The notes under the pieces are model-generated. The model saw only the letters and a list, made by a program, of their open reading frames with translations, was not told where the DNA came from and ran no database searches. Shown here one piece after another: positions 15,870 to 27,790 of a stretch of 64,000 nucleotides of DNA. Position 1 is the stretch's first letter. Every line of letters begins with the position of its first letter. A program made the translations under genes and the position numbers. The stretch comes from Candidatus Omnitrophota bacterium (lineage in GTDB: Bacteria; Omnitrophota; Gorgyraeia; JABMRG01), in assembly GCA_041650035.1 (NCBI GenBank), contig JBAZLY010000002.1, positions 15,436-79,435 on the forward strand, read 5' to 3'.

Positions 15870-16688
15870 ATGTTTAAAAAGATCTTTGCTGTTATCGCCG
15901 TGATGTTATTCGGCATCGCTTCTTACGCCTGCGCGCAGAAAGATTACACAGGCGATCTGGAGGCGGCAAAAAAGGAACTCGCGGGGCTTGAAGAAAAAAT
16001 AGCTGACTATAAAAACAAGATCAAGGTATTGACAAAGAAATTCAACGAAGCGGATATTTCCTTAAGGCAAGACCTTATGCTGTGCAAGGCTCATATGGAT
16101 GAAAAGACATTTATCCGCGAATCCAAAAGAAGGCAATCACAGCTTAAGGGGGATTTTCAGGTTAAATACGCCCCTGTAAAATCAGAATATAATAAACTTA
16201 AAGATGCCCATAAAAGATGTTCCAGGCGCATAAAAGCCCTCGATAAAAAAATAGACCGTCTTGCCGGCGATCCCGGATACGAATCATATATCGAAAAGAT
16301 GGACGCGTGCAGGGCGGATGCGCAGGCAGCAAAAGATAAATTACATTCAGGCATTGCCGCGATATACAATGAGGCGGGGGACAAGATAGAGCAGATCACC
16401 GATATGGCGAATAAGAGCAAGATAAAGAACCAGATATTAGCTGACGCTCAAATCAAAGAACACGCCCTAAGAATGGAATATCAAAAGGAAAAACAATTAA
16501 TCGAATCCCACATAGAACAGGTACGGTCAGACTATAAAAAAAGCAAGTCGGAATTCAATTTAAACCGGGCGCAAAAGGCGCCGGAGGCAGAGGGTCAGGC
16601 GAACCTCAAGGCCAAACCGGTTAAATACACGGATAAAAATACCCGGGTAAAAAAACAACCTTCTTCCAATTTTTCTCCAGCTAATTAG
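15870..16688 (+). CDS. coiled-coil lipoprotein, hypothetical
   Basis: Signal peptide with Cys (IASYAC), Lys/Glu-rich heptad-like body; GGGAGG RBS. Confidence 0.45.
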   Translation: MFKKIFAVIAVMLFGIASYACAQKDYTGDLEAAKKELAGLEEKIADYKNKIKVLTKKFNEADISLRQDLMLCKAHMDEKTFIRESKRRQSQLKGDFQVKYAPVKSEYNKLKDAHKRCSRRIKALDKKIDRLAGDPGYESYIEKMDACRADAQAAKDKLHSGIAAIYNEAGDKIEQITDMANKSKIKNQILADAQIKEHALRMEYQKEKQLIESHIEQVRSDYKKSKSEFNLNRAQKAPEAEGQANLKAKPVKYTDKNTRVKKQPSSNFSPAN

Positions 16689-16823
16689 AAAAGTTGTTAT
16701 AAAAGGCAAATTAGATGAAGCTTTTACGGCATAGCCTGTGCAGAAGGCGGTACAGAACGCAGATCAAGATAAGACAATGGTTTGCCGCGGGGATGCGCGC
16801 CATATTAAAAAGGAGGCCCGGAC

Positions 16824-17552
16824 ATGATAAGATCAGGCAACCCCACGCTTAGAGACAACGTATTCAGCCAGTTGTCCAACGCGGGGGCATATAATGCCAT
16901 GACCGTGCAGGGGACCGTGAATAAGTCTTTTCTGATGGCCCTGCTTGTCGTTTTTTCGGCAAGCCTGGTATGGAACAGGCCTTCGGCCGCTGCCGGGCTT
17001 CTACTACCTTCATTGGCCGTCGGTTTTATTATAGCCCTTGTCACGGTATTTAAGAAAGAATACGCCCCTTACACGGCGCCGATATACGCCCTGACACAGG
17101 GCGTCGTATTGGGCGCCGTATCGGCTTTTTTTGAAAAAAGCTATCCTGGGATCGTTATACAGGCCGTTGGGCTTACCATATCAACCTTGATATGCATGTT
17201 AATAGCGTATAAAACAGGCATTATCAATCCTACGCAACGTTTCAGGTTAGGCATAATAGCGGCGACAGGCGGTATAGCGCTTTTTTATCTAACAGGCCTG
17301 ATTATGAGCTTTTTCGGGTTCAATATGGGGATTATCCACAGCAGCACACCCATAGGAATAGCCTTTAGCGCAGTTGTCGTCATTGTAGCGGCGCTTAATC
17401 TTGTTATTGACTTTGATTTTATTGTCAAAGGCGCCGCTTATAATGCGCCGGGATATATGGAGTGGTATGGCGCCTTTGCCCTGATGGTCACCTTGATATG
17501 GCTTTACCTTGAGATCTTAAGGCTGCTGTCAAAAACGCGTAATAGGTGGTAA
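16824..17552 (+). CDS. Bax inhibitor-1/YccA family membrane protein
   Basis: About 240 aa, 7 predicted TM helices, cytosolic N-terminal tail; AAAGGAGG RBS. Confidence 0.55.
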   Translation: MIRSGNPTLRDNVFSQLSNAGAYNAMTVQGTVNKSFLMALLVVFSASLVWNRPSAAAGLLLPSLAVGFIIALVTVFKKEYAPYTAPIYALTQGVVLGAVSAFFEKSYPGIVIQAVGLTISTLICMLIAYKTGIINPTQRFRLGIIAATGGIALFYLTGLIMSFFGFNMGIIHSSTPIGIAFSAVVVIVAALNLVIDFDFIVKGAAYNAPGYMEWYGAFALMVTLIWLYLEILRLLSKTRNRW

Positions 17553-17557
17553 TCGCG

Positions 17558-18034
17558 ATGGAAAAAATATATCTTACGCAGCAAGGTCATGACAAGCTCA
17601 AACATGAACTTGAATATTTAAAGACAAAAAAAAGGCGCCAGCTCTCGGAAGAGATAGGCAAGGCCCGCGCCCTCGGCGATATAAGTGAAAATGCCGAATA
17701 CGACGCGGCAAAGGATGCCCAGGGCCTAAACGAGAAAAGGATATTTGAACTGGAGGACAAGCTGTCCCGTGCCCAGATAATAGATGAATCGCGTATGACC
17801 GCGGACATGGCCCTTATAGGGGCCACGGTAACCGTCAGGGACATTACCGCAGGCGGGGAGGAAGAATCCTATACCCTCGTCTCTGAAGCAGAGTCTGATT
17901 TTTCAAAAGGTATGATATCGGTATCGTCACCCGTAGGCAAGGCCCTTCTCGGCAAAAAAAAAGGCGAGACTGTTGATATTATTGTGCCCGCTGGCACATT
18001 AAGATACGTAATAATCAATATCGAAAGGAGGTGA
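17558..18034 (+). CDS. greA: transcription elongation factor GreA
   Basis: N-terminal coiled coil with acidic tip (LGDISENAEYDAAK), C-terminal FKBP-like domain; AGGTGG RBS. Confidence 0.9.
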   Translation: MEKIYLTQQGHDKLKHELEYLKTKKRRQLSEEIGKARALGDISENAEYDAAKDAQGLNEKRIFELEDKLSRAQIIDESRMTADMALIGATVTVRDITAGGEEESYTLVSEAESDFSKGMISVSSPVGKALLGKKKGETVDIIVPAGTLRYVIINIERR

Positions 18035-18040
18035 ACCTGT

Positions 18041-18394
18041 ATGAGAATCCTGTTGGCATGCGTTGCCATTATGCTGTTTTCCTGCGCCACGTTAGTTCAA
18101 GCTGAAGATATGCCGGGTGAAGAGGCGCAATCTTTTTATTCTTACGGCGAGGTGTTGAGCGTATCAGCTGATCAGATCCTTATCAAGGAATTCGATTATG
18201 TGACAGGGGATGAAAAAGAGGCTGTTTATCATATCGACAAAGAGACGTCTTTTGACTCGGTAGAATCGGCCCAGCAGATTGCCCCCGGCGAGCTCGTGGA
18301 TATTGAGTTCATTGTTTCGGAGGACGGCAGAAACATAGCAAGAGATATATTCGTTGACCGCATTGAGGATTTCGAGAATTTTGAGGAAGACTAA
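18041..18394 (+). CDS. acidic secreted/lipoprotein, hypothetical (117 aa)
   Basis: Signal peptide with LFSC lipobox-like motif; acidic C-terminus; AAGGAGGTGA RBS. Confidence 0.45.
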   Translation: MRILLACVAIMLFSCATLVQAEDMPGEEAQSFYSYGEVLSVSADQILIKEFDYVTGDEKEAVYHIDKETSFDSVESAQQIAPGELVDIEFIVSEDGRNIARDIFVDRIEDFENFEED

Positions 18395-18442
18395 TCTTTA
18401 AGCAACCGTTGTGCGCGCCAAAAATATAAGGAGGGTATTTCT

Positions 18443-18619
18443 GTGTGCTGCGAGTCATGTATACGCTATGAAAAATGTTTAGAAGATGGCCGGACAAAAG
18501 ATGAATGTTGTCCCCGCTGTCCTGAATACAATGAATGTTCAGGCGGCGATAGAGCCAGGGATTGCAGTAACAACAGCTATGACGGCTACAGCAGGGAGGA
18601 TGAGAACTATTATCAATAA
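18443..18619 (+). CDS. 58-aa Cys-rich micro-protein (9 Cys), not in ORF track
   Basis: GTG start 8 nt after consensus AGGAGG (18429-18434); VCCESCIRYEKC...ECCPRCPEYNEC...DC; frame open only from the upstream stop; strong terminator follows. Confidence 0.5.
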   Translation: MCCESCIRYEKCLEDGRTKDECCPRCPEYNECSGGDRARDCSNNSYDGYSREDENYYQ

Positions 18620-18670
18620 AGGCGGGGGTCTTTCCCGCGATTTTAAAGGCTATCGTGGTAACAGATAGGG

Positions 18671-18710
18671 CCGCGCGGATATCCGCAATACGATCCGCGT
18701 GGTTGTTTTT
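18671..18710 (+). terminator. rho-independent terminator
   Basis: 10-bp stem CCGCGCGGAT/ATCCGCGTGG (one G-U), 12-nt loop, followed by TTGTTTTT. Confidence 0.6.
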
Positions 18711-18945
18711 AAATGAACGTTTTTCCCCGTATTCGCGGGCAGCGGGCGGGCCCCGGTAAAGGCATGTTATCCGTCGTTAGACACGCATAGCTTAGGCGGC
18801 ATAGATTGGGTTATGCGATGATAAATATCCCCGCGTCAAACACCGTATGGGGACATTGCTTGTTTGCAGATACGCATTTCACGCTTCTTAACATTTACAC
18901 AATAATAGAAAGGCCCTGTAAAAACAGGCTCTTACACAGGATAAA

Positions 18946-19599
18946 ATGAACGATATAAAAACCAAATCCATAAGGACTATAGAAGAAAAGATGTCACACC
19001 TTGAGGAATCCGATATAAGACGCGGCATACTCGAATCCGCCAAAAGCTTTAAGACCTCATGGATAAGTTTCGGCCAGGCGCTTTACACGGTATGGAAAGA
19101 TAAATTATACAAAGGCTGGGGTTATGATAAATTTGAGGCATATACGGCAAAGGAGATAGGTATACGCAAACAAACGGCCGTGAAGCTATTAAGATCATAC
19201 TGCTTTCTGGAAAAGGAAGACCCCCTTTACCTTAAGAAAGATTATAATGATGAGGCTGATACCGCGCTGGTACCCAGTTATGAATCAGTTGATGTTCTGC
19301 GGTTGGCAAGGGATAAGAAGGACCTAAGTAAAGAGGATTACGCGAAAATAAAGAAATCTGTGCTTGAGATGGGCAAAGACGCGGGATCAGTCAAAAAAGA
19401 CCTGACAGCCCTTATAAGACAGCGCGAGCAGCTGCAGCCGGAAGAGGTATGGCAAAAAAAGCGCCTTACATTGTTAAAAAGATTTTTGACCACGCTAAAA
19501 AGCCTGGTTGACGAGGCAAGGGCGTCAAATATGCTTTCATCGAAAGCCATAGACGATCTTCAAAAGATTATAGACGGGATGGAGACGGAACTTTTATAA
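18946..19599 (+). CDS. hypothetical protein with possible HTH segment (217 aa)
   Basis: Clean ORF; FEAYTAKEIGIRKQTAVKLLRSY resembles a helix-turn-helix; otherwise no family assignment. Confidence 0.45.
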   Translation: MNDIKTKSIRTIEEKMSHLEESDIRRGILESAKSFKTSWISFGQALYTVWKDKLYKGWGYDKFEAYTAKEIGIRKQTAVKLLRSYCFLEKEDPLYLKKDYNDEADTALVPSYESVDVLRLARDKKDLSKEDYAKIKKSVLEMGKDAGSVKKDLTALIRQREQLQPEEVWQKKRLTLLKRFLTTLKSLVDEARASNMLSSKAIDDLQKIIDGMETELL

Positions 19600-19636
19600 T
19601 AAAAGAATTGTAATCTATAAACACACGGGGGATGAA

Positions 19637-19918
19637 ATGGCGAAGGCAAAGGCTAAGCACATTCTGGTTTCAAGCAGGGAAAGGTGCGAGAACCTAAAAA
19701 AACAAATTGAATCCGGTGAAAGTTTTGAAAAAATAGCCGGACTTTATTCGGAATGCCCGTCAGGACAGGACGGCGGAAATCTCGGTGAATTTGAACCCGG
19801 GCAAATGGTAGAGGAATTTGATGAAATCGTCTTCAGCGGGGAAATAGGCAAGGTCCATGGCCCGATTAAAACAGATTTCGGTTATCACCTTATACAGATA
19901 CTTAGCAGAAGCGAATAA
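19637..19918 (+). CDS. ppiC: parvulin-type peptidyl-prolyl cis-trans isomerase (PpiC/Par10-like)
   Basis: AKHILV...CPSG..GG.LG.F..G.MV..F, GPI.T.FGYH.I rotamase motifs; 93 aa. Confidence 0.8.
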   Translation: MAKAKAKHILVSSRERCENLKKQIESGESFEKIAGLYSECPSGQDGGNLGEFEPGQMVEEFDEIVFSGEIGKVHGPIKTDFGYHLIQILSRSE

Positions 19919-19933
19919 CGACAGGAGCGCCTA

Positions 19934-20902
19934 ATGAATCAAGCCAAGGAAATGCGCCTTAAGAAAACGAATATTGATAAATTCATCAAAGAAAAATGCG
20001 CCAATATATCCGCTATTGTAGGCGGCGCGGAGGCGATCAACGCACTTTCCGGCGGAGTAGATAGTGCCGCCGTCACCATGCTCGGCCATAAGGCGATAGG
20101 CAAAAAACTTAAGACATATTTTATAGACAACGGGCTGATGCGCCAGAACGAGGCGCGAATGGTAAAGGATATTTTCAAAAAACTCGGCGTTGAGGTCAAT
20201 GTTATCAACGCCAGAAATATATTTTTAAATGCCCTTCGTGGAATAGAAGACGCGGAAATGAAAAGAGAGGCCATATCGCAGACCTTTTACAAGGATGTAT
20301 TCGGCCGATTGGTAAAAAACAGCCATGCCCGCTTCCTCCTGCAAGGGACAATCCTGACAGACATTGATGAGACTGTCGCTGGGATAAAAAGACAGCATAA
20401 TGTGTTTGAGCAGCTTGGTATTGACCCTGAAAAAAGTTTCGGATACAAGATATTGGAACCTCTTGTCCGGCTTCGCAAGGACAGCGTCAGGTATCTGGCA
20501 AAATCTCTCGGTCTGCCGGAAGACATATATAACCGTCAGCCTTTTCCAGGTCCTGCGCTTGCCGCGCGGATCATTGGCGAGGTAACCGGCGAACGGATAG
20601 AACTGGCCCGGGAATCAACCGGCATTCTTGAACAAGAATGCCGCGGGATAAAGGCTTTTCAGTATATGGCCATACTTCATAACGACAAGGTCACAGGCGT
20701 AAGGGACGGGAAAAGGGCTTTCGGCGCGCAGATAGAAATAAGGTGCTGGGATAGCACGGACGCCAGAAAGGCCAAACCTACAAACCTGCCGTTTAAAATA
20801 CTGCGCAAGATAGCTGACAGGATAACATCCGAGATTGCCGGCGTTGTAAGCGTAACCTATAACATAACCACGAAACCCCCTTCAACCATAGAGGCTGTTT
20901 GA
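19934..20902 (+). CDS. divergent stand-alone GMP-synthase-like ATP pyrophosphatase (GuaA C-terminal domain / archaeal GuaAB-like)
   Basis: SGGVDS PP-loop, C-terminal KPPSTIE dimerisation motif; the XMP-binding [10 protein letters not shown] region is altered to DAEMKREAISQTF; a canonical guaA sits at 37887-39428. Confidence 0.65.
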   Translation: MNQAKEMRLKKTNIDKFIKEKCANISAIVGGAEAINALSGGVDSAAVTMLGHKAIGKKLKTYFIDNGLMRQNEARMVKDIFKKLGVEVNVINARNIFLNALRGIEDAEMKREAISQTFYKDVFGRLVKNSHARFLLQGTILTDIDETVAGIKRQHNVFEQLGIDPEKSFGYKILEPLVRLRKDSVRYLAKSLGLPEDIYNRQPFPGPALAARIIGEVTGERIELARESTGILEQECRGIKAFQYMAILHNDKVTGVRDGKRAFGAQIEIRCWDSTDARKAKPTNLPFKILRKIADRITSEIAGVVSVTYNITTKPPSTIEAV

Positions 20903-21267
20903 TATCAGCGCCTTAAATCCGGGTTCTTTTTCCAAAGAACTGCATCGATTTGTCACGCAGCGAAACCTGAAATACCTATTAAGCGTGCTGAAATTCAACG
21001 CGGAACATGGTATAATGTTTTTCAGGATCGGTTTAAGGACTTGCGCCCTTCGTCTCTCACAAGGCGTGGCTTATAAACTGGCAAAGGGGATTTAAGGCTT
21101 AAGGAGCGAGAAAAGGGGCCCATGCCGTTAGCATATCAGGCCGGGTGTTTTTAAGGATTTTTTGCGGAATAGACAGCCTTACGATTTTGATATAACGCTT
21201 AAGATTAAGGGTAAGGAGAAAAACCCGCTAAAGGCGCTTGAAATAGCGAAACGGGACAAAAGGCTTT

Positions 21268-24355: not shown

Positions 24356-24392
24356 CTTGGGCCGTGAAAATACCGGGATCAAACAAACACGT

Positions 24393-25031
24393 ATGGATAC
24401 TATTGTTCAGAAATTGCCTGACAACTGCAGGCGTAACATACATGAGATTGTTAAGCTTTTCGCGGAGATTGATATGCGGGTAGCTGATTTTGTCAGGATC
24501 ACCGGCATCCACTGCCCCGAGGGATGCGGGTTTTGCTGTAATAGCATAGAGATAGAGACAACCGTATTGGAGATGCTGCCTTTATCCGCCTGGTTGTGGG
24601 CAAACGGCAAGGCCGATGGGGTATTGTCTATGTTATCACGGACAAGCAATAATACTTGCGTTTTTTTTAACAAAGCTCCTAAGACGGGCGGAAACGGCCA
24701 CTGCACCATATATGGACTAAGGCCTTTGATATGCAGGCTTTTTGGTTTTTTTACCAATAAGGATAAAAACGGAAAATACACATACGGGTCGTGCAAGGTC
24801 ATAAAAGAGGTCTACCCGGAAACATACAAAAAATGCTTAAGATTGATAGAGGCAGGATATCACCCATCCAATATGACCGATTTCTCCGTCAGGGTAATCG
24901 CTCAAGGCACGGACTTCGGCCGAAAAATGCTGACTATTAACACGGCGGCAAAAATCGCGATTGAAAAAATCGGGTTTATGCTGTCGCTGATTGAAACCCC
25001 TCCGGAAACGCCAAACCCTCGGGCTGCTTAA
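24393..25031 (+). CDS. YkgJ-family cysteine-cluster protein (second paralog)
   Basis: CPEGCGFCC (CxxCxxCC); alternative TTG start at 24357. Confidence 0.55.
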   Translation: MDTIVQKLPDNCRRNIHEIVKLFAEIDMRVADFVRITGIHCPEGCGFCCNSIEIETTVLEMLPLSAWLWANGKADGVLSMLSRTSNNTCVFFNKAPKTGGNGHCTIYGLRPLICRLFGFFTNKDKNGKYTYGSCKVIKEVYPETYKKCLRLIEAGYHPSNMTDFSVRVIAQGTDFGRKMLTINTAAKIAIEKIGFMLSLIETPPETPNPRAA

Positions 25032-25896: not shown

Positions 25897-27204
25897 TTAG
25901 CCGAGGTTTAGAAGCGGGATATTGAGGCGCTGTCTTTTGGTCTCCCCTTTTTGCAGGTTTTTTTGGCGCCAGGAAAGGCTGTTTCTTGGGTGGTTTTTTA
26001 AGCCCTTCCGCAAGGGGTTTTTTGATGATGCCAGATGGATGGTATGCTTGCCGTATTTTTTGGCAATTTCATCAATCATCCTTGAGACCTTTTCTACCTT
26101 TTCTATTCTTATCGCATCATCAAAAAGCGTCCTTTGATACTGCAAGTTTACGGTGATATCTGATAAGACAATGCCCGATGCCCTGTACAGCAGGCCATCT
26201 TTAAAGATATCGTCAAAAAGCCCTGCTAAAATATCTGCGAATTCCATCGTTGATGATGAATGACAGCTCAAGGTTGCCATGAGGCCTGTTGCCTTAAAAT
26301 CCTGCGTTTTTAGATATGCCAGAAGACGTCTCGCGAAAAGGCCGTGACGCCTTAATTTTATGCATGCAGACTCAAGATTTCTTGTAATCTGCGCCTTGAC
26401 AAACAATCTGTTTTTTGATGCCGGCGAAAAGGTCTTTGTCTTGCTTATTGATAAATACTTCTCTTTTCTTAATGTGTTGATTCGATACACATAATGCCCT
26501 CTAAGTTCAAGCCACAATTCCCTGCCTATTTTGCCTAAAATACTCTCCGCAAAATCTAAGGGTTTATTGATATAATCAAAGACATTATTAAGCCCATAAC
26601 GGCGTAAAAGCTCAACCGTATTATGCCCGAAACCGCAGACCTCCTCAAAAGAAGTCTGCTTTAAAAAGCAATGGATCTCATGGCCCGGCAATGCCTTTAT
26701 GCCGGACGGTTTATTACAGCCCGAGCAGAGTTTTGCAAGTGTCTTTGACAGGCTTAGGCCTATTGAGACAGTGATATCCAGCTCTTTTTCGATTCTTTTC
26801 TTTATTAGAAGCGCGATATTCTCATAGCCTGCGTGATAAAGCCTCCTCATACCGGTAATGTCGCAAAATGCCTCATCAATAGAATATTCCTCAACATCGG
26901 GGCTGAATTGCCTTAATATGGAAAACATCCTTTCAGAATAAATACTGTAAAGCTCATAATCACTTGGTATTATAATTGCGTCGGGGATAATCTTCTTAAC
27001 CTCATGCAGGCGTATACCCCTTCCAATGCCTCTGGCCTTTGCCTCATAGCTTGCGCAGGATACTATCCCCCTCTCTTTCCCCGTTATCACGGATTTTCCT
27101 TTTAAAATAGGGCTTCTGGCCTGCTCGCATGAAACGAAAAAGGCATCGCAGTCTACATGCAATATAGCCTTTGGATAGTTTTTAAGGGTTATGAATTGGG
27201 ACAC
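25897..27204 (-). CDS. Y-family DNA polymerase (UmuC/DinB-like translesion polymerase)
   Basis: LHVDCDAFFVSCE and YSIDEAF catalytic motifs; 435 aa; immediately downstream of lexA. Confidence 0.8.
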   Translation of the reverse strand: MSQFITLKNYPKAILHVDCDAFFVSCEQARSPILKGKSVITGKERGIVSCASYEAKARGIGRGIRLHEVKKIIPDAIIIPSDYELYSIYSERMFSILRQFSPDVEEYSIDEAFCDITGMRRLYHAGYENIALLIKKRIEKELDITVSIGLSLSKTLAKLCSGCNKPSGIKALPGHEIHCFLKQTSFEEVCGFGHNTVELLRRYGLNNVFDYINKPLDFAESILGKIGRELWLELRGHYVYRINTLRKEKYLSISKTKTFSPASKNRLFVKAQITRNLESACIKLRRHGLFARRLLAYLKTQDFKATGLMATLSCHSSSTMEFADILAGLFDDIFKDGLLYRASGIVLSDITVNLQYQRTLFDDAIRIEKVEKVSRMIDEIAKKYGKHTIHLASSKNPLRKGLKNHPRNSLSWRQKNLQKGETKRQRLNIPLLNLG

Positions 27205-27208
27205 GTCT

Positions 27209-27790
27209 TTATTTGTATTTTCTTATATTCGCGATAACCACACCGGCTATAATAAGCTCATGCTTAGGTATTATAGTGGGATACTTCTGATTTGCCGCCT
27301 GCAGATAGACCTTTTTGGCCTTTTGCTTAAAATATTTTAATGTCCACTCATTATCAACCCGGGCTATAACAATATCACCGTCTTTTGGGTCAAGGCCTTT
27401 CTGGATAAGGACAAGGTCCCCCTGATGTATGCCAGCCTCTATCATGGAATCGCCCCGGACATTTACAAGGAATGTCGCGTTGGGATTTGACACGAGATAC
27501 TCATCAATGCTTACAACATCCTGAAGCTCTTCTTCAGCGGGACTTGGAAAACCTGCCTGTATTGAGCCCAGTATAGGTACTGCCCTCATTGCCTTTTTAG
27601 GGATAAGCCGGCCTCTGTCATCTTTTTCCAAAAGGCCCGCTTTTATAAGAGCCGATACTCTTTTAAACGCGGCATTCTTTGAGCTTAAACTAAAGATAGA
27701 AAGCATTTCAGAATATGACGGCATTCTTTTTTTCTTAAAGTAAAAACCCTTTATCTTATCTAAGTATAATAAAAGCTTTTCTTTTTTCAT
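27209..27790 (-). CDS. lexA: LexA repressor (S24 peptidase)
   Basis: N-terminal winged HTH, Ala-Gly cleavage site (IQAGFP), Ser (GDSM) and Lys (VIARVDNEWTLKYF) catalytic dyad. Confidence 0.8.
   Translation of the reverse strand: MKKEKLLLYLDKIKGFYFKKKRMPSYSEMLSIFSLSSKNAAFKRVSALIKAGLLEKDDRGRLIPKKAMRAVPILGSIQAGFPSPAEEELQDVVSIDEYLVSNPNATFLVNVRGDSMIEAGIHQGDLVLIQKGLDPKDGDIVIARVDNEWTLKYFKQKAKKVYLQAANQKYPTIIPKHELIIAGVVIANIRKYK

Follow-up and report, generated by a model that had tools for sequence, protein, structure and literature searches.

Genes and Features of the Locus

The window, that is, the whole 64-kb stretch of DNA that was analysed, carries a short cysteine-rich gene located behind a gene for an acidic exported protein. 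The features of this locus are as follows.

18041-18394, plus strand: partner gene, whose product is an acidic secreted protein of 117 aa comprising a Sec signal peptide, a DUF5666-like five-stranded OB/beta-barrel and an acidic tail
18429-18434, plus strand: Shine-Dalgarno sequence AGGAGG, read in the sequence, 8 nt from the GTG start
18443-18619, plus strand: true coding sequence, starting at GTG, of an eight-cysteine micro-protein of 58 aa, absent from the public annotation
18446-18538, plus strand: conserved core, residues 2-32, with two CCxxC(P)xYxxC units, a 9-residue linker and eight conserved Cys (alignments A2 and A3)
18539-18616, plus strand: variable, disordered acidic tail, residues 33-58, rich in Tyr/Phe and holding the non-conserved C41 (AF2 and tail counts)
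18486-18668, plus strand: overlapping 60-aa ORF in the +1 frame, publicly annotated as hypothetical protein WC300_02180, an artefact
18622-18638, plus strand: small GC hairpin directly 3' of the stop codon of the cysteine-rich gene (RNAfold), placed on the minus strand by the terminator scan
18669-18710, plus strand: intrinsic-terminator-like hairpin with U-run (RNAfold), the hairpin being conserved in L001

The initial annotation had described a GTG-initiated reading frame at 18443-18619, 8 nt past a perfect AGGAGG, and both elements can be observed in the sequence. The frame comprises 58 codons, from the GTG at 18443 to the TAA stop at 18617-18619, and its product is (M)CCESCIRYEKCLEDGRTKDECCPRCPEYNECSGGDRARDCSNNSYDGYSREDENYYQ. 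A GGAGG-type Shine-Dalgarno sequence located 5-10 nt from the start was found in essentially all of 19 homologous loci inspected. The nine cysteines, the two CC pairs and the acidic, Tyr-rich tail described at the outset are all present; only eight of the cysteines are conserved, C41 being idiosyncratic.

Downstream of the gene, a stem of 12 bp, including three G-U pairs, was predicted by RNAfold at 18669-18704 (GGCCGCGCGGAU/AUCCGCGUGGUU), directly followed by the U-run GUUUUU at 18705-18710. The 10-bp GC hairpin with U-tract reported previously is contained in this structure, and the same hairpin and U-run are retained at the orthologous locus L001. The structure was missed by a simple terminator scan because its apical region exceeds the loop limit of the scan. 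It likely represents the end of a baxI-greA-DUF5666-peptide transcription unit. An Rfam scan of the region 16000-21000 returned no match at E ≤ 1, indicating that neither a riboswitch nor an sRNA is located at the peptide locus.

Coding Frame of the Cysteine-Rich Gene

The cysteine-rich gene had been considered unannotated, which agrees with the public record, where WC300_02180 is listed in the other frame instead. The exact 60-aa sequence of the +1 frame is found in the sequence collection as MFA5068636.1, and the cysteine-rich peptide of this genome is not there. A second, near-identical JGI call also uses the +1 frame. Taken at face value, these two calls favour a situation in which 18443-18619 is a chance open frame rather than a gene, and the 60-aa ORF at 18486-18668 is the real product. 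However, the comparative evidence points in the opposite direction. The +1 frame carries one to three stops in each of 14 homologous loci tested, and the homologues of its 60-aa product are near-identical copies only. The ORF exists as initially described, overlapping and with no properly spaced Shine-Dalgarno sequence, and Pfam and NCBIfam scans of its product gave no match. Across these 14 loci, only the cysteine frame stays open everywhere, the other five not being consistently open, and substitutions by codon position (928/694/1663) display a third-position excess in this frame. At the three closest loci, changed codons are synonymous in 5-11 cases and non-synonymous in 4-6 cases when read in the cysteine frame, as against 0-2 and 8-14, respectively, when read in the +1 frame. 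Furthermore, PGAP calls the cysteine frame in the orthologue PHV77_01895. A comparison of the two frames had been proposed with the initial annotation, and its outcome is a conserved cysteine pattern on one side and, on the other, a frame broken by stops whose changes alter the product. We are therefore close to certain that a real and conserved gene underlies the cysteine-rich ORF and that the wrong frame was annotated at this locus; a chance open frame is extremely improbable.

Family, Architecture and Predicted Fold of the Peptide

The peptide belongs to a family of 70 clusters with 96 distinct homologues of 40-61 aa, all of which come from Omnitrophota or from unclassified metagenome contigs. 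An exhaustive HMMER search among 1.84 billion sequences yielded ten representatives. A syntenic orthologue with 70% identity and the same neighbours is located on a 257-kb Omnitrophica contig. No relatives were found on the viral contigs searched, which indicates that the peptide is not phage-borne. The literature searched on cysteine-rich proteins of Omnitrophota gave incidental table entries, with nothing functional. The family is previously undescribed, uncharacterised and restricted to Omnitrophota.

All homologues begin with MCC or VCC, preceded by a Shine-Dalgarno sequence, and share the cysteine pattern M-CCx2Cx5C-x9-CCx2Cx5C. The eight N-terminal cysteines are invariant or nearly so across the 96 homologues, so that the conservation on which the first description could be checked is borne out. 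Considered in full, the core reads M-[CCx2C(P)xYx2C]-x9-[CCx2CPxYx2C], an internal duplication of CCxxCPxYxxC, in which the eight Cys together with E4, Y9, L18, K19, P27 and Y29 are invariant or at least 90% conserved. The linker between the two units is 9 residues long in 92 of 92 sequences. The duplication is significant, the two units agreeing at 1.89 positions other than Cys, compared with 0.87 ± 0.09 in shuffles. Cysteine makes up 8 of the 31 core residues (26%), and there is almost no hydrophobic core. The ninth cysteine, C41, is not conserved, any Cys being found in only 6 of 92 family tails. Of the 92 tails, 85 carry a net negative charge and 70 have an aromatic residue among their last four positions.

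The AF2 model of the peptide is of moderate quality (mean pLDDT 62.5). Three short helices are predicted, with pLDDT of approximately 73-81 over residues 1-30, and most of the tail has values below 50. A Foldseek search of this model against the PDB gave no match, and Pfam and NCBIfam scans of the peptide and two homologues at E ≤ 1 returned no family. The only PDB sequence match, obtained with single-sequence and 70-sequence profile queries, was Arp3 (E = 0.45), which was rejected as spurious. No family member contains a hydrophobic stretch, which implies a cytoplasmic location of the peptide.

The Partner Gene and Its Linkage to the Peptide

At 30 of approximately 47 non-redundant loci, the peptide gene is immediately preceded by a DUF5666-like gene in the same orientation, implying that the two genes form a module. 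When they are adjacent, the gap is 3-166 nt; the partner is missing at approximately 10 divergent loci. In the window, Pfam DUF5666 matches the partner with E = 9.7e-5, below the curated cut-off, and PF18914 was found in four partner homologues. Nothing functional is reported on DUF5666 in the literature searched, where it appears in incidental table entries. The AF2 model of the partner, made with eight sequences, has five strands and a pLDDT of 82.8. Its best Foldseek match in the PDB is CusF (1zeq, E = 7e-5, TM 0.74 on the target), and SilF (8bwv) and the C-terminal domain of SilB (2l55) are also listed. With the periplasmic Cu(I)/Ag(I) chaperones CusF and SilF, the partner shares its small size, its export and an OB-type beta-barrel of five strands, but it is strongly acidic with an acidic tail, and its sequence family is DUF5666-like rather than CusF.

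It should be noted that a role in metal handling does not follow from the fold match, because the partner lacks the His, Met and Trp ligands of CusF. The residues concerned, H36, M47, M49 and W44, have no conserved counterpart. In an alignment of 17 partner-family members (A4), no His, Met, Trp or Cys is invariant or near-invariant in the mature domain. Regarding export, the upstream gene had initially been described as encoding an acidic lipoprotein. An acidic protein with a signal peptide it is, but the label of lipoprotein is unsupported, since the lipobox ([LVI][ASTVI][GAS]C) is not conserved in the family: the window partner has a lipobox-like LFSC, and the homologues at L006, L009 and L016 have the Cys elsewhere or none. 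A signal peptidase I site of the ...AQ| type is common to all partner homologues compared.

Gene Neighbourhood and Search for Maturation Enzymes

The first description had allowed for a RiPP-like precursor, and maturation enzymes were looked for around the gene. Within 10 kb on either side, the window contains housekeeping genes only, with no maturase, protease, transporter or metal genes; the sole radical-SAM enzyme in this range is RlmN (RlmN_N domain). Moreover, no maturase, protease or exporter family recurs across the approximately 47 related loci. These results bear on the view that the product is a RiPP precursor of the leaderless or follower type, or else a disulfide-rich toxin that is secreted. 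Its cysteines would be cross-linked as thioethers or disulfides, and the exported product might serve the life as predators or parasites that has been proposed for Omnitrophota. The CC-C-C-CC-C-C framework does resemble that of disulfide-rich peptides, a secreted protein is encoded alongside, and a radical-SAM gene is located directly downstream at the single locus L009 and approximately 2.3 kb upstream at L006. However, all 96 sequences enter the invariant cysteine core at residue 2, which leaves no room for a leader, and it is the C-terminal tail that varies; the peptide has neither a signal peptide nor a double-glycine motif. RiPP cores are usually variable, whereas this core is nearly invariant, and the NCBIfam models of RiPP precursors returned no family. 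A RiPP precursor is accordingly unlikely, and export as a modified peptide or toxin of this kind is given very little weight.

A number of further neighbours were each observed at single loci, namely rubrerythrin with ferredoxin, Hcp with Rrf2, a [NiFe] hydrogenase, GroEL with Hsp20, and a KamA-like radical-SAM protein. They were not used as evidence because they are not recurrent.

The family also shares features with other small cysteine-rich proteins. Cysteine-rich zinc-finger micro-proteins of archaea and bacteria, such as the CPxCG μ-proteins of Haloferax, and the six-Cys SCIFF peptides are likewise multi-Cys, lineage-specific proteins of 45-60 aa that are often missed by gene callers. 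The peptide differs from them in having no CPxCG knuckle, no match to the SCIFF model and no linked radical-SAM maturase.

A Possible Role in Metal Sequestration

A metallothionein-like peptide had also been proposed. As a narrower version of the explanation favoured below, the peptide, induced by metal stress, would sequester an excess of soft metals such as Zn, Cd or Cu(I) in a thiolate cluster, with the exported CusF-fold protein as its periplasmic arm. The cysteine density of the core and its CC and CxxC motifs are consistent with such a sink, as is the best PDB match of the partner, a Cu/Ag chaperone. The bacterial metallothioneins SmtA/BmtA (Pfam Metallothio_Pro) and MymT are similarly small, cytoplasmic and cysteine-rich, with CC and CxxC motifs. 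In addition, at eight or more related loci the cassette begins with a wHTH regulator of the ArsR/SmtB family, comparable with smtA beside smtB, and at one related locus the neighbours include a Zip transporter and a CzcB-like RND efflux system.

Several observations speak against this. No metallothionein model in Pfam or NCBIfam matches the peptide or two homologues at E ≤ 1. The peptide differs from bacterial metallothioneins in lacking His ligands and in its strict spacing, conserved aromatics and predicted helices; the strictness of its non-Cys residues, including two conserved Tyr, is atypical of metallothioneins. Membership in the metallothionein family, as far as the first description implied it, is not supported, given the missing model match, the conserved Tyr and Pro and the predicted helices. 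The partner contributes no conserved Met, His or Cys, and in the window the gene lies behind greA with no metal genes nearby. An ArsR-type neighbour was also considered as proof of metal sensing and rejected: the cassette regulators have a single conserved Cys (ELCE), without the α3N CxC or the α5 DxHx10H site, and their nearest solved relatives are the non-metal proteins HlyU and PagR. The 64-kb window itself lacks any ArsR-like gene. Sequestration of this kind is considered unlikely, while retaining some share of the probability.

A Possible Zinc-Finger-Type Regulator

A second possibility is a small regulator or adaptor of the zinc-finger type, in which the eight Cys would hold two structural Zn ions, as in Gal4 Zn2Cys6 or LIM domains, and the tail would dock to a basic partner and modulate the nucleic-acid or protein binding of that partner. 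Binuclear Zn clusters have a CX2CX6C-linker-CX2CX6C architecture, which the pseudo-symmetric duplicated unit of the peptide resembles. The layout is Gal4-like in its tandem CX2CXnC units, short linker, length of approximately 30 residues and short helix after each CxxC, as predicted by AF2. The candidate partner in other genomes is a basic 46-aa peptide, whose gene is located directly upstream of the cysteine gene in approximately 10 related loci; in P0056 the two peptides are fused as one 106-aa protein, and tandem basic-tailed and acidic-tailed paralogues are found at three loci. The negative charge and the aromatic tips of the family tails fit a docking role, and SSB-type C-terminal tips resemble such tails.

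However, the 64-kb window has no gene for the basic peptide, just one contig, of 694 nt, carries the fusion, and no target emerged from the analysis. Gal4-type Zn2Cys6 is a eukaryotic DNA-binding domain with six Cys and spacing x2/x6/x6/x2/x6, whereas the peptide has eight Cys, spacing x2/x5/x9(+C)/x2/x5 and a surface that is not basic. The pattern of Zn_clus (PF00172; CX2CX6CX5-12CX2CX6-8C) is not found in the peptide, and neither this model nor any other zinc finger of Pfam matched at E ≤ 1. We regard a zinc-finger role as unlikely, to about the same degree as sequestration.

Proposed Function as a Metal-Centre Module

Of the functions considered, a cytoplasmic metal-thiolate or Fe-S micro-protein is the most likely, to judge from the sequence. 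Each half of the peptide contains the spacing CX2CX5C, as C3-x2-C6-x5-C12 and C23-x2-C26-x5-C32, with C2 and C22 adjacent, all at least 90% conserved. As an extra Cys adjoins each copy, four potential ligands are available per half. CX2CX5C binds [4Fe-4S] in NUBP1/Nbp35 (PMC8007109) and an O2-sensitive Fe-S cluster in RseC (PMC11729352). The systems compared were the N-terminal CX13CX2CX5C of NUBP1/Nbp35, the N-domain of RseC/RnfF and the CX2CX5CX3C of SPASM. The same ligand motif is used by WhiB-like proteins and by the cluster loops of EndoIII/MutY. The peptide has this spacing in common with the Fe-S proteins, twice over, and is cytoplasmic in a largely anaerobic host lineage. The pattern would nevertheless be necessary rather than sufficient for membership among Fe-S proteins. 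No homology of the peptide to the Nbp35 N-terminus, RseC, SPASM or Wbl was detected with Pfam, NCBIfam, PDB sequence and Foldseek searches, in which no other known metalloprotein gave a homology or fold match either. A vicinal CC pair is an unusual source of a cluster ligand, and no known cluster-binding domain with eight Cys approaches the small size of this one, approximately 32 residues.

A metal-binding or redox function is plausible, and it fits a module with 8 Cys in 31 residues and almost no hydrophobic core, CX2CX5C occurring twice, and a partner with a CusF-like fold. We infer that the eight-cysteine module folds around a metal centre bound by Cys thiolates, since it has too few hydrophobic residues to fold alone. 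Candidate centres would be one or two Fe-S clusters, suggested by the ligand spacing in each unit, or a thiolate cluster of two or more Zn or Cu ions. The acidic disordered tail of approximately 25 residues, usually aromatic-ended, may serve as a docking or solubilising element. The gene is probably co-transcribed with the upstream exported OB-fold gene, to which it is evolutionarily linked, in a transcript that would end at 18669-18710; in the window, the two-gene module appears to be inserted behind greA. The probable task of the module is to deal with a metal or with redox/thiol stress, its two components being located on opposite sides of the inner membrane. It should be noted that the predicted location of the two products in different compartments complicates a direct interaction. 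Overall, it is reasonably probable that a genuine gene at 18443-18619 is translated into a cytoplasmic micro-protein of an undescribed, Omnitrophota-restricted family, which acts as a metal-centre module together with its linked partner.

A more specific and rather improbable version would make the peptide a minimal metallo-cofactor scaffold, in which the duplicated CCx2Cx5C core of approximately 32 residues, beginning at the extreme N-terminus, carries Fe-S or mixed metal-thiolate clusters and functions as a lineage-specific electron carrier or as a redox/persulfide sensor-adaptor. Its tail would plug into a basic partner, represented in other Omnitrophota by the fused or adjacent 46-aa peptide. 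After removal of Met, the N-terminal Cys2 would offer a thiol together with a free amine.

Significance

In the public record, a conserved micro-protein gene has been replaced by a wrong-frame ORF. This is a correctable mis-call of a small gene, and the same error is found in at least one related assembly. The family that the peptide defines is restricted to one phylum, and its eight-Cys duplication is unusually compact and strictly conserved. An exported CusF-fold protein is genetically linked to the peptide, and other members are also linked to a regulator of the ArsR/HlyU type and to a basic micro-protein. As a new small-protein family it is modestly interesting, given that uncharacterised cysteine-rich micro-proteins are common in metagenomes and that no unexpected mechanism is in evidence here.

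If the peptide does bind an Fe-S or metal-thiolate centre, it would rank with the smallest cluster scaffolds found in nature. Were the di-cluster scaffold described above to prove correct, no smaller natural di-cluster protein would be known, and the peptide would belong to an Omnitrophota-specific stress module together with an exported CusF-fold protein. Omnitrophota are known almost entirely from metagenome-assembled genomes, and cluster binding by this peptide would provide a handle on their metal and redox physiology.

Locus anatomy and genomic context

All the elements described in the initial annotation, namely a Shine-Dalgarno sequence, a GTG-initiated ORF, a hairpin terminator and an overlapping ORF in another frame, were found at the positions it gave. 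They follow three upstream genes:

16824-17552, baxI-like gene
17546-18034, greA
18041-18394 (+), 117-aa signal-peptide protein (the partner), directly before the Cys peptide gene
18429-18434 (+), Shine-Dalgarno AGGAGG, read in the sequence
18443-18619 (+), Cys peptide CDS, 58 codons, start GTG at 18443, stop TAA at 18617-18619, read in the sequence
18486-18668 (+), overlapping 60-aa ORF in the +1 frame, from the mechanical ORF list
18622-18638 (+), small hairpin (RNAfold)
18669-18704 (+), strong 12-bp hairpin followed by GUUUUU (RNAfold)

The Cys peptide reads (M)CCESCIRYEKCLEDGRTKDECCPRCPEYNECSGGDRARDCSNNSYDGYSREDENYYQ. The strong hairpin is absent from the output of the simple terminator scan because its apical region exceeds the permitted loop size. 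The order baxI-like gene, greA, partner, Cys peptide, terminator is identical at L001, the closest orthologous locus, and the gaps of just 7 nt and 48 nt suggest that the Cys peptide is co-transcribed with greA and the 117-aa gene. Beyond the terminator lies a 225-nt gap, within which all promoter-like matches near the next downstream gene are located, followed by genes for a 217-aa unknown protein, a PpiC rotamase and a GMP-synthase-like protein. For the 217-aa protein (18946-19599, +), TelA and bAvd-like hits stayed below threshold and no family was matched; of the loci fetched, L001 alone conserves it. Further along the window, a LexA-like S24 peptidase gene (27209-27790) and a Y-family polymerase gene (25897-27204; IMS, IMS_C), both on the minus strand (25897-27790), look like an SOS-type mutagenesis pair. 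Another Cys-motif protein, of 224 aa (24357-25031, +), carries the putative Zn- or Fe-chelating CxxCxxCC domain PF03692; it lies 6 kb downstream of the Cys peptide with no evident link to it.

Reading frame and public record

A word-indexed search returned two homologues, P0001 and P0002, the former being a 57-aa “hypothetical protein” from a Candidatus Omnitrophica MAG with 70% identity. HMMER, run exhaustively over 1.84 billion representatives, yielded ten homologues of 50-61 aa, a profile search 70 clusters, and scans of genome and metagenome contigs 9 and 33 further loci, giving 96 distinct sequences from all searches combined. Family members begin with exactly MCC or VCC, without exception, and a GGAGG-type Shine-Dalgarno sequence stands 5-10 nt upstream of the start in 19 inspected loci. 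In the family alignments A2 and A3, C3, C6, C12, C22 and C26 are invariant, while C2, C23, C32, M1, E4, Y9, L18, K19, P27 and Y29 are at least 90% conserved.

The initial annotation had proposed weighing conservation of the Cys pattern against that of the alternative frame, and frame openness, stop counts and substitution patterns all favor the Cys frame. Among the six frames, it alone is open in 14 of 14 non-redundant loci tested, whereas the +1 frame contains 1-3 stops in each of them. Substitutions at codon positions 1, 2 and 3 numbered 928, 694 and 1663 over the first 34 codons. In the three closest loci, changed codons were synonymous in 5-11 cases versus non-synonymous in 4-6 when read in the Cys frame, and synonymous in 0-2 versus non-synonymous in 8-14 when read in the +1 frame. 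That ORF 18443-18619 is not a gene is thus extremely improbable. In genome CAZEQA01 the peptide gene occurs a second time (L017 6001-6135), with an in-frame TAG in place of the conserved Glu/Asp that follows CPKC(P/S); this reflects either pseudogenization or a fault in the assembly.

The peptide had been described as unannotated, which holds for the source genome. By exact-sequence look-up, the proteins of the flanking genes are present in the public collection as WC300_02185 and WC300_02175 (“MAG: Candidatus Omnitrophota bacterium”), and the 58-aa Cys protein was not found there. The record between the two is the wrong-frame 60-aa ORF 18486-18668 (+), WC300_02180 / MFA5068636.1, an artefact. 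A near-identical call occurs in a JGI assembly (P0075), and at L001 the annotation pipeline chose the correct frame. The definite outcome is that the source genome is publicly annotated in the wrong reading frame at this locus.

Architecture of the Cys peptide

Residues 2-32 form the core, in which a unit of the common pattern CCxxCPxYxxC is duplicated; the consensus is CCEECPKYEKC in unit 1 and CCPKCPEYYDC in unit 2. The linker measures 9 residues in 92 of 92 sequences, and non-Cys identity between the units amounts to 1.89 positions per sequence, compared with 0.87 ± 0.09 in shuffles. From residue 33 to the end extends a tail of 11-29 aa, variable in sequence, negatively charged in 85/92 members and with an aromatic residue within its last four positions in 70/92. 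All nine Cys reported initially are present in the window peptide; the ninth, C41, is not a family feature, since only 6/92 members have a Cys in the tail. The AF2 model built with a 70-sequence alignment displayed moderate confidence for residues 1-30 (block means 73-81), with predicted helices at 7-14, 19-25 and 27-33 and a disordered tail. With 8 Cys and hardly any hydrophobic side chains, these 31 residues cannot build a conventional core, which in a cytoplasmic protein suggests stabilization by bound metal.

No hydrophobic stretch, signal peptide or leader was observed in any family member. A RiPP-like precursor had been among the initial suggestions. This reading, like that of an exported toxin, is very improbable because a leader is lacking, the N-terminal core does not vary, and maturation enzymes, which the initial annotation had not seen nearby, are absent within ±10 kb and do not recur across loci.

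Neighbors, partner and regulator

The wider neighborhood is not conserved among approximately 47 non-redundant related loci. The one conserved neighbor is a partner homologue directly upstream on the same strand, found in 30 of them, with a gap of 3-166 nt where the genes are adjacent; loci lacking it are mostly truncated contigs or more divergent “MCCEICP” subgroups. In other related loci, an ArsR-family winged-helix regulator comes first in the cassette (at least 8 loci), and a highly basic, conserved peptide of 46 aa (KRLSKGIRKYIRRQK...LIRELLxRFY, also written KRLSKGIRKYIRRQKMIIRRLA...LIRELLxRFY) is encoded between the partner and Cys peptide genes, directly upstream of the latter (about 10 loci). 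Both are absent from the 64-kb window.

Regulator: L004 4960-5331; L011 4671-5042; L015 5007-5381; L016 4986-5360; others
Basic 46-aa peptide: L004 5853-5981; L011 5617-5757; L014 5846-5986; L016 5845-5985; also L012, L017, L024, L026, L029, L042
Tandem eight-Cys paralogues: L032 65-247 and 248-; L039 about 4815 and 5001; L048 about 4821 and 5001

The basic peptide has no Pfam match, and P0056 is a 106-aa in-frame fusion of it with the Cys peptide. In the three loci with tandem paralogues, the tail is basic and rich in Lys/Arg in the first copy and of the usual acidic kind in the second; the paralogues of L039 and L048 adjoin an arginase/agmatinase-like gene and a [NiFe]-hydrogenase pair.

The partner scored just under threshold against Pfam DUF5666, a domain carried by four of its homologues. 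In its AF2 model (pLDDT 82.8), a signal helix precedes a barrel of five strands, and the acidic tail is disordered. The top Foldseek match in the PDB was apo-CusF (1zeq, E=7e-5, TM 0.74 on target), with SilF and the CusF-like C-domain of SilB also present amid generic OB folds. A CusF metal site is ruled out because none of His, Met, Trp or Cys is conserved in the mature part across a 17-sequence alignment. The upstream gene had been called a lipoprotein, but the signal-peptide Cys is not positionally conserved and the ...AQ| cleavage motif is; on these signals, the family appears to be secreted and not lipidated. The partner tail is acidic with Phe/Tyr near its end (…EDFENFEED in the window, …EEIEY and …DIDY in homologues), the same style as that of the Cys peptide, so the two tails may have a docking or ion-binding property in common.

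Among solved structures, the regulator comes closest to HlyU, PagR and the ArsR-family entry 6o8k-o, which corresponds to the persulfide sensor SqrR; SmtB, CzrA, CadC and NmtR match far more weakly. In the five sequences read, one Cys (ELCE) is conserved and neither the alpha3N CxC motif nor the alpha5 DxHx10H motif is present. The regulator was therefore rejected as evidence of metal sensing, being HlyU/PagR-like without canonical metal-sensor residues; the signal it may hint at, if any, is one of redox or thiol type.

Possible function and significance

The Cys peptide probably binds metal. Both units contain CX2CX5C, the [4Fe-4S] ligand spacing in NUBP1/Nbp35 (PMC8007109) and that of the O2-sensitive cluster in RseC/RnfF (PMC11729352); SPASM domains and Dna2 have it too. 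The duplicated short-helix units are reminiscent of binuclear Zn-thiolate modules, and in Cys density the peptide resembles metallothioneins. No match was obtained in Pfam, NCBIfam, PDB sequence search or Foldseek, and membership in none of these three classes is established. One or more Fe-S clusters are a tentative possibility, a structural or regulatory Zn protein is rather doubtful, and a metallothionein-like sink, to which the Cys density would correspond, is unlikely. The favored reading is a cytoplasmic metal-cluster micro-protein, Fe-S or Zn/Cu-thiolate, whose acidic tail may serve as a docking element and which may be expressed as a module together with the exported CusF-fold protein.

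The family has no curated model or structure in Pfam, NCBIfam or PDB, and no literature was found. Its named sources are Omnitrophota, except for one record labelled Atribacteria and some TPA bins labelled Planctomycetia, probably binning or classification noise; relatives are absent from viral contigs. Interest is moderate, because no unexpected mechanism is shown. In biological terms, a micro-protein family is now defined and open to testing; its members are small bacterial proteins, rich in Cys and presumably metal-binding, whose architecture and conserved gene partnership are both new.
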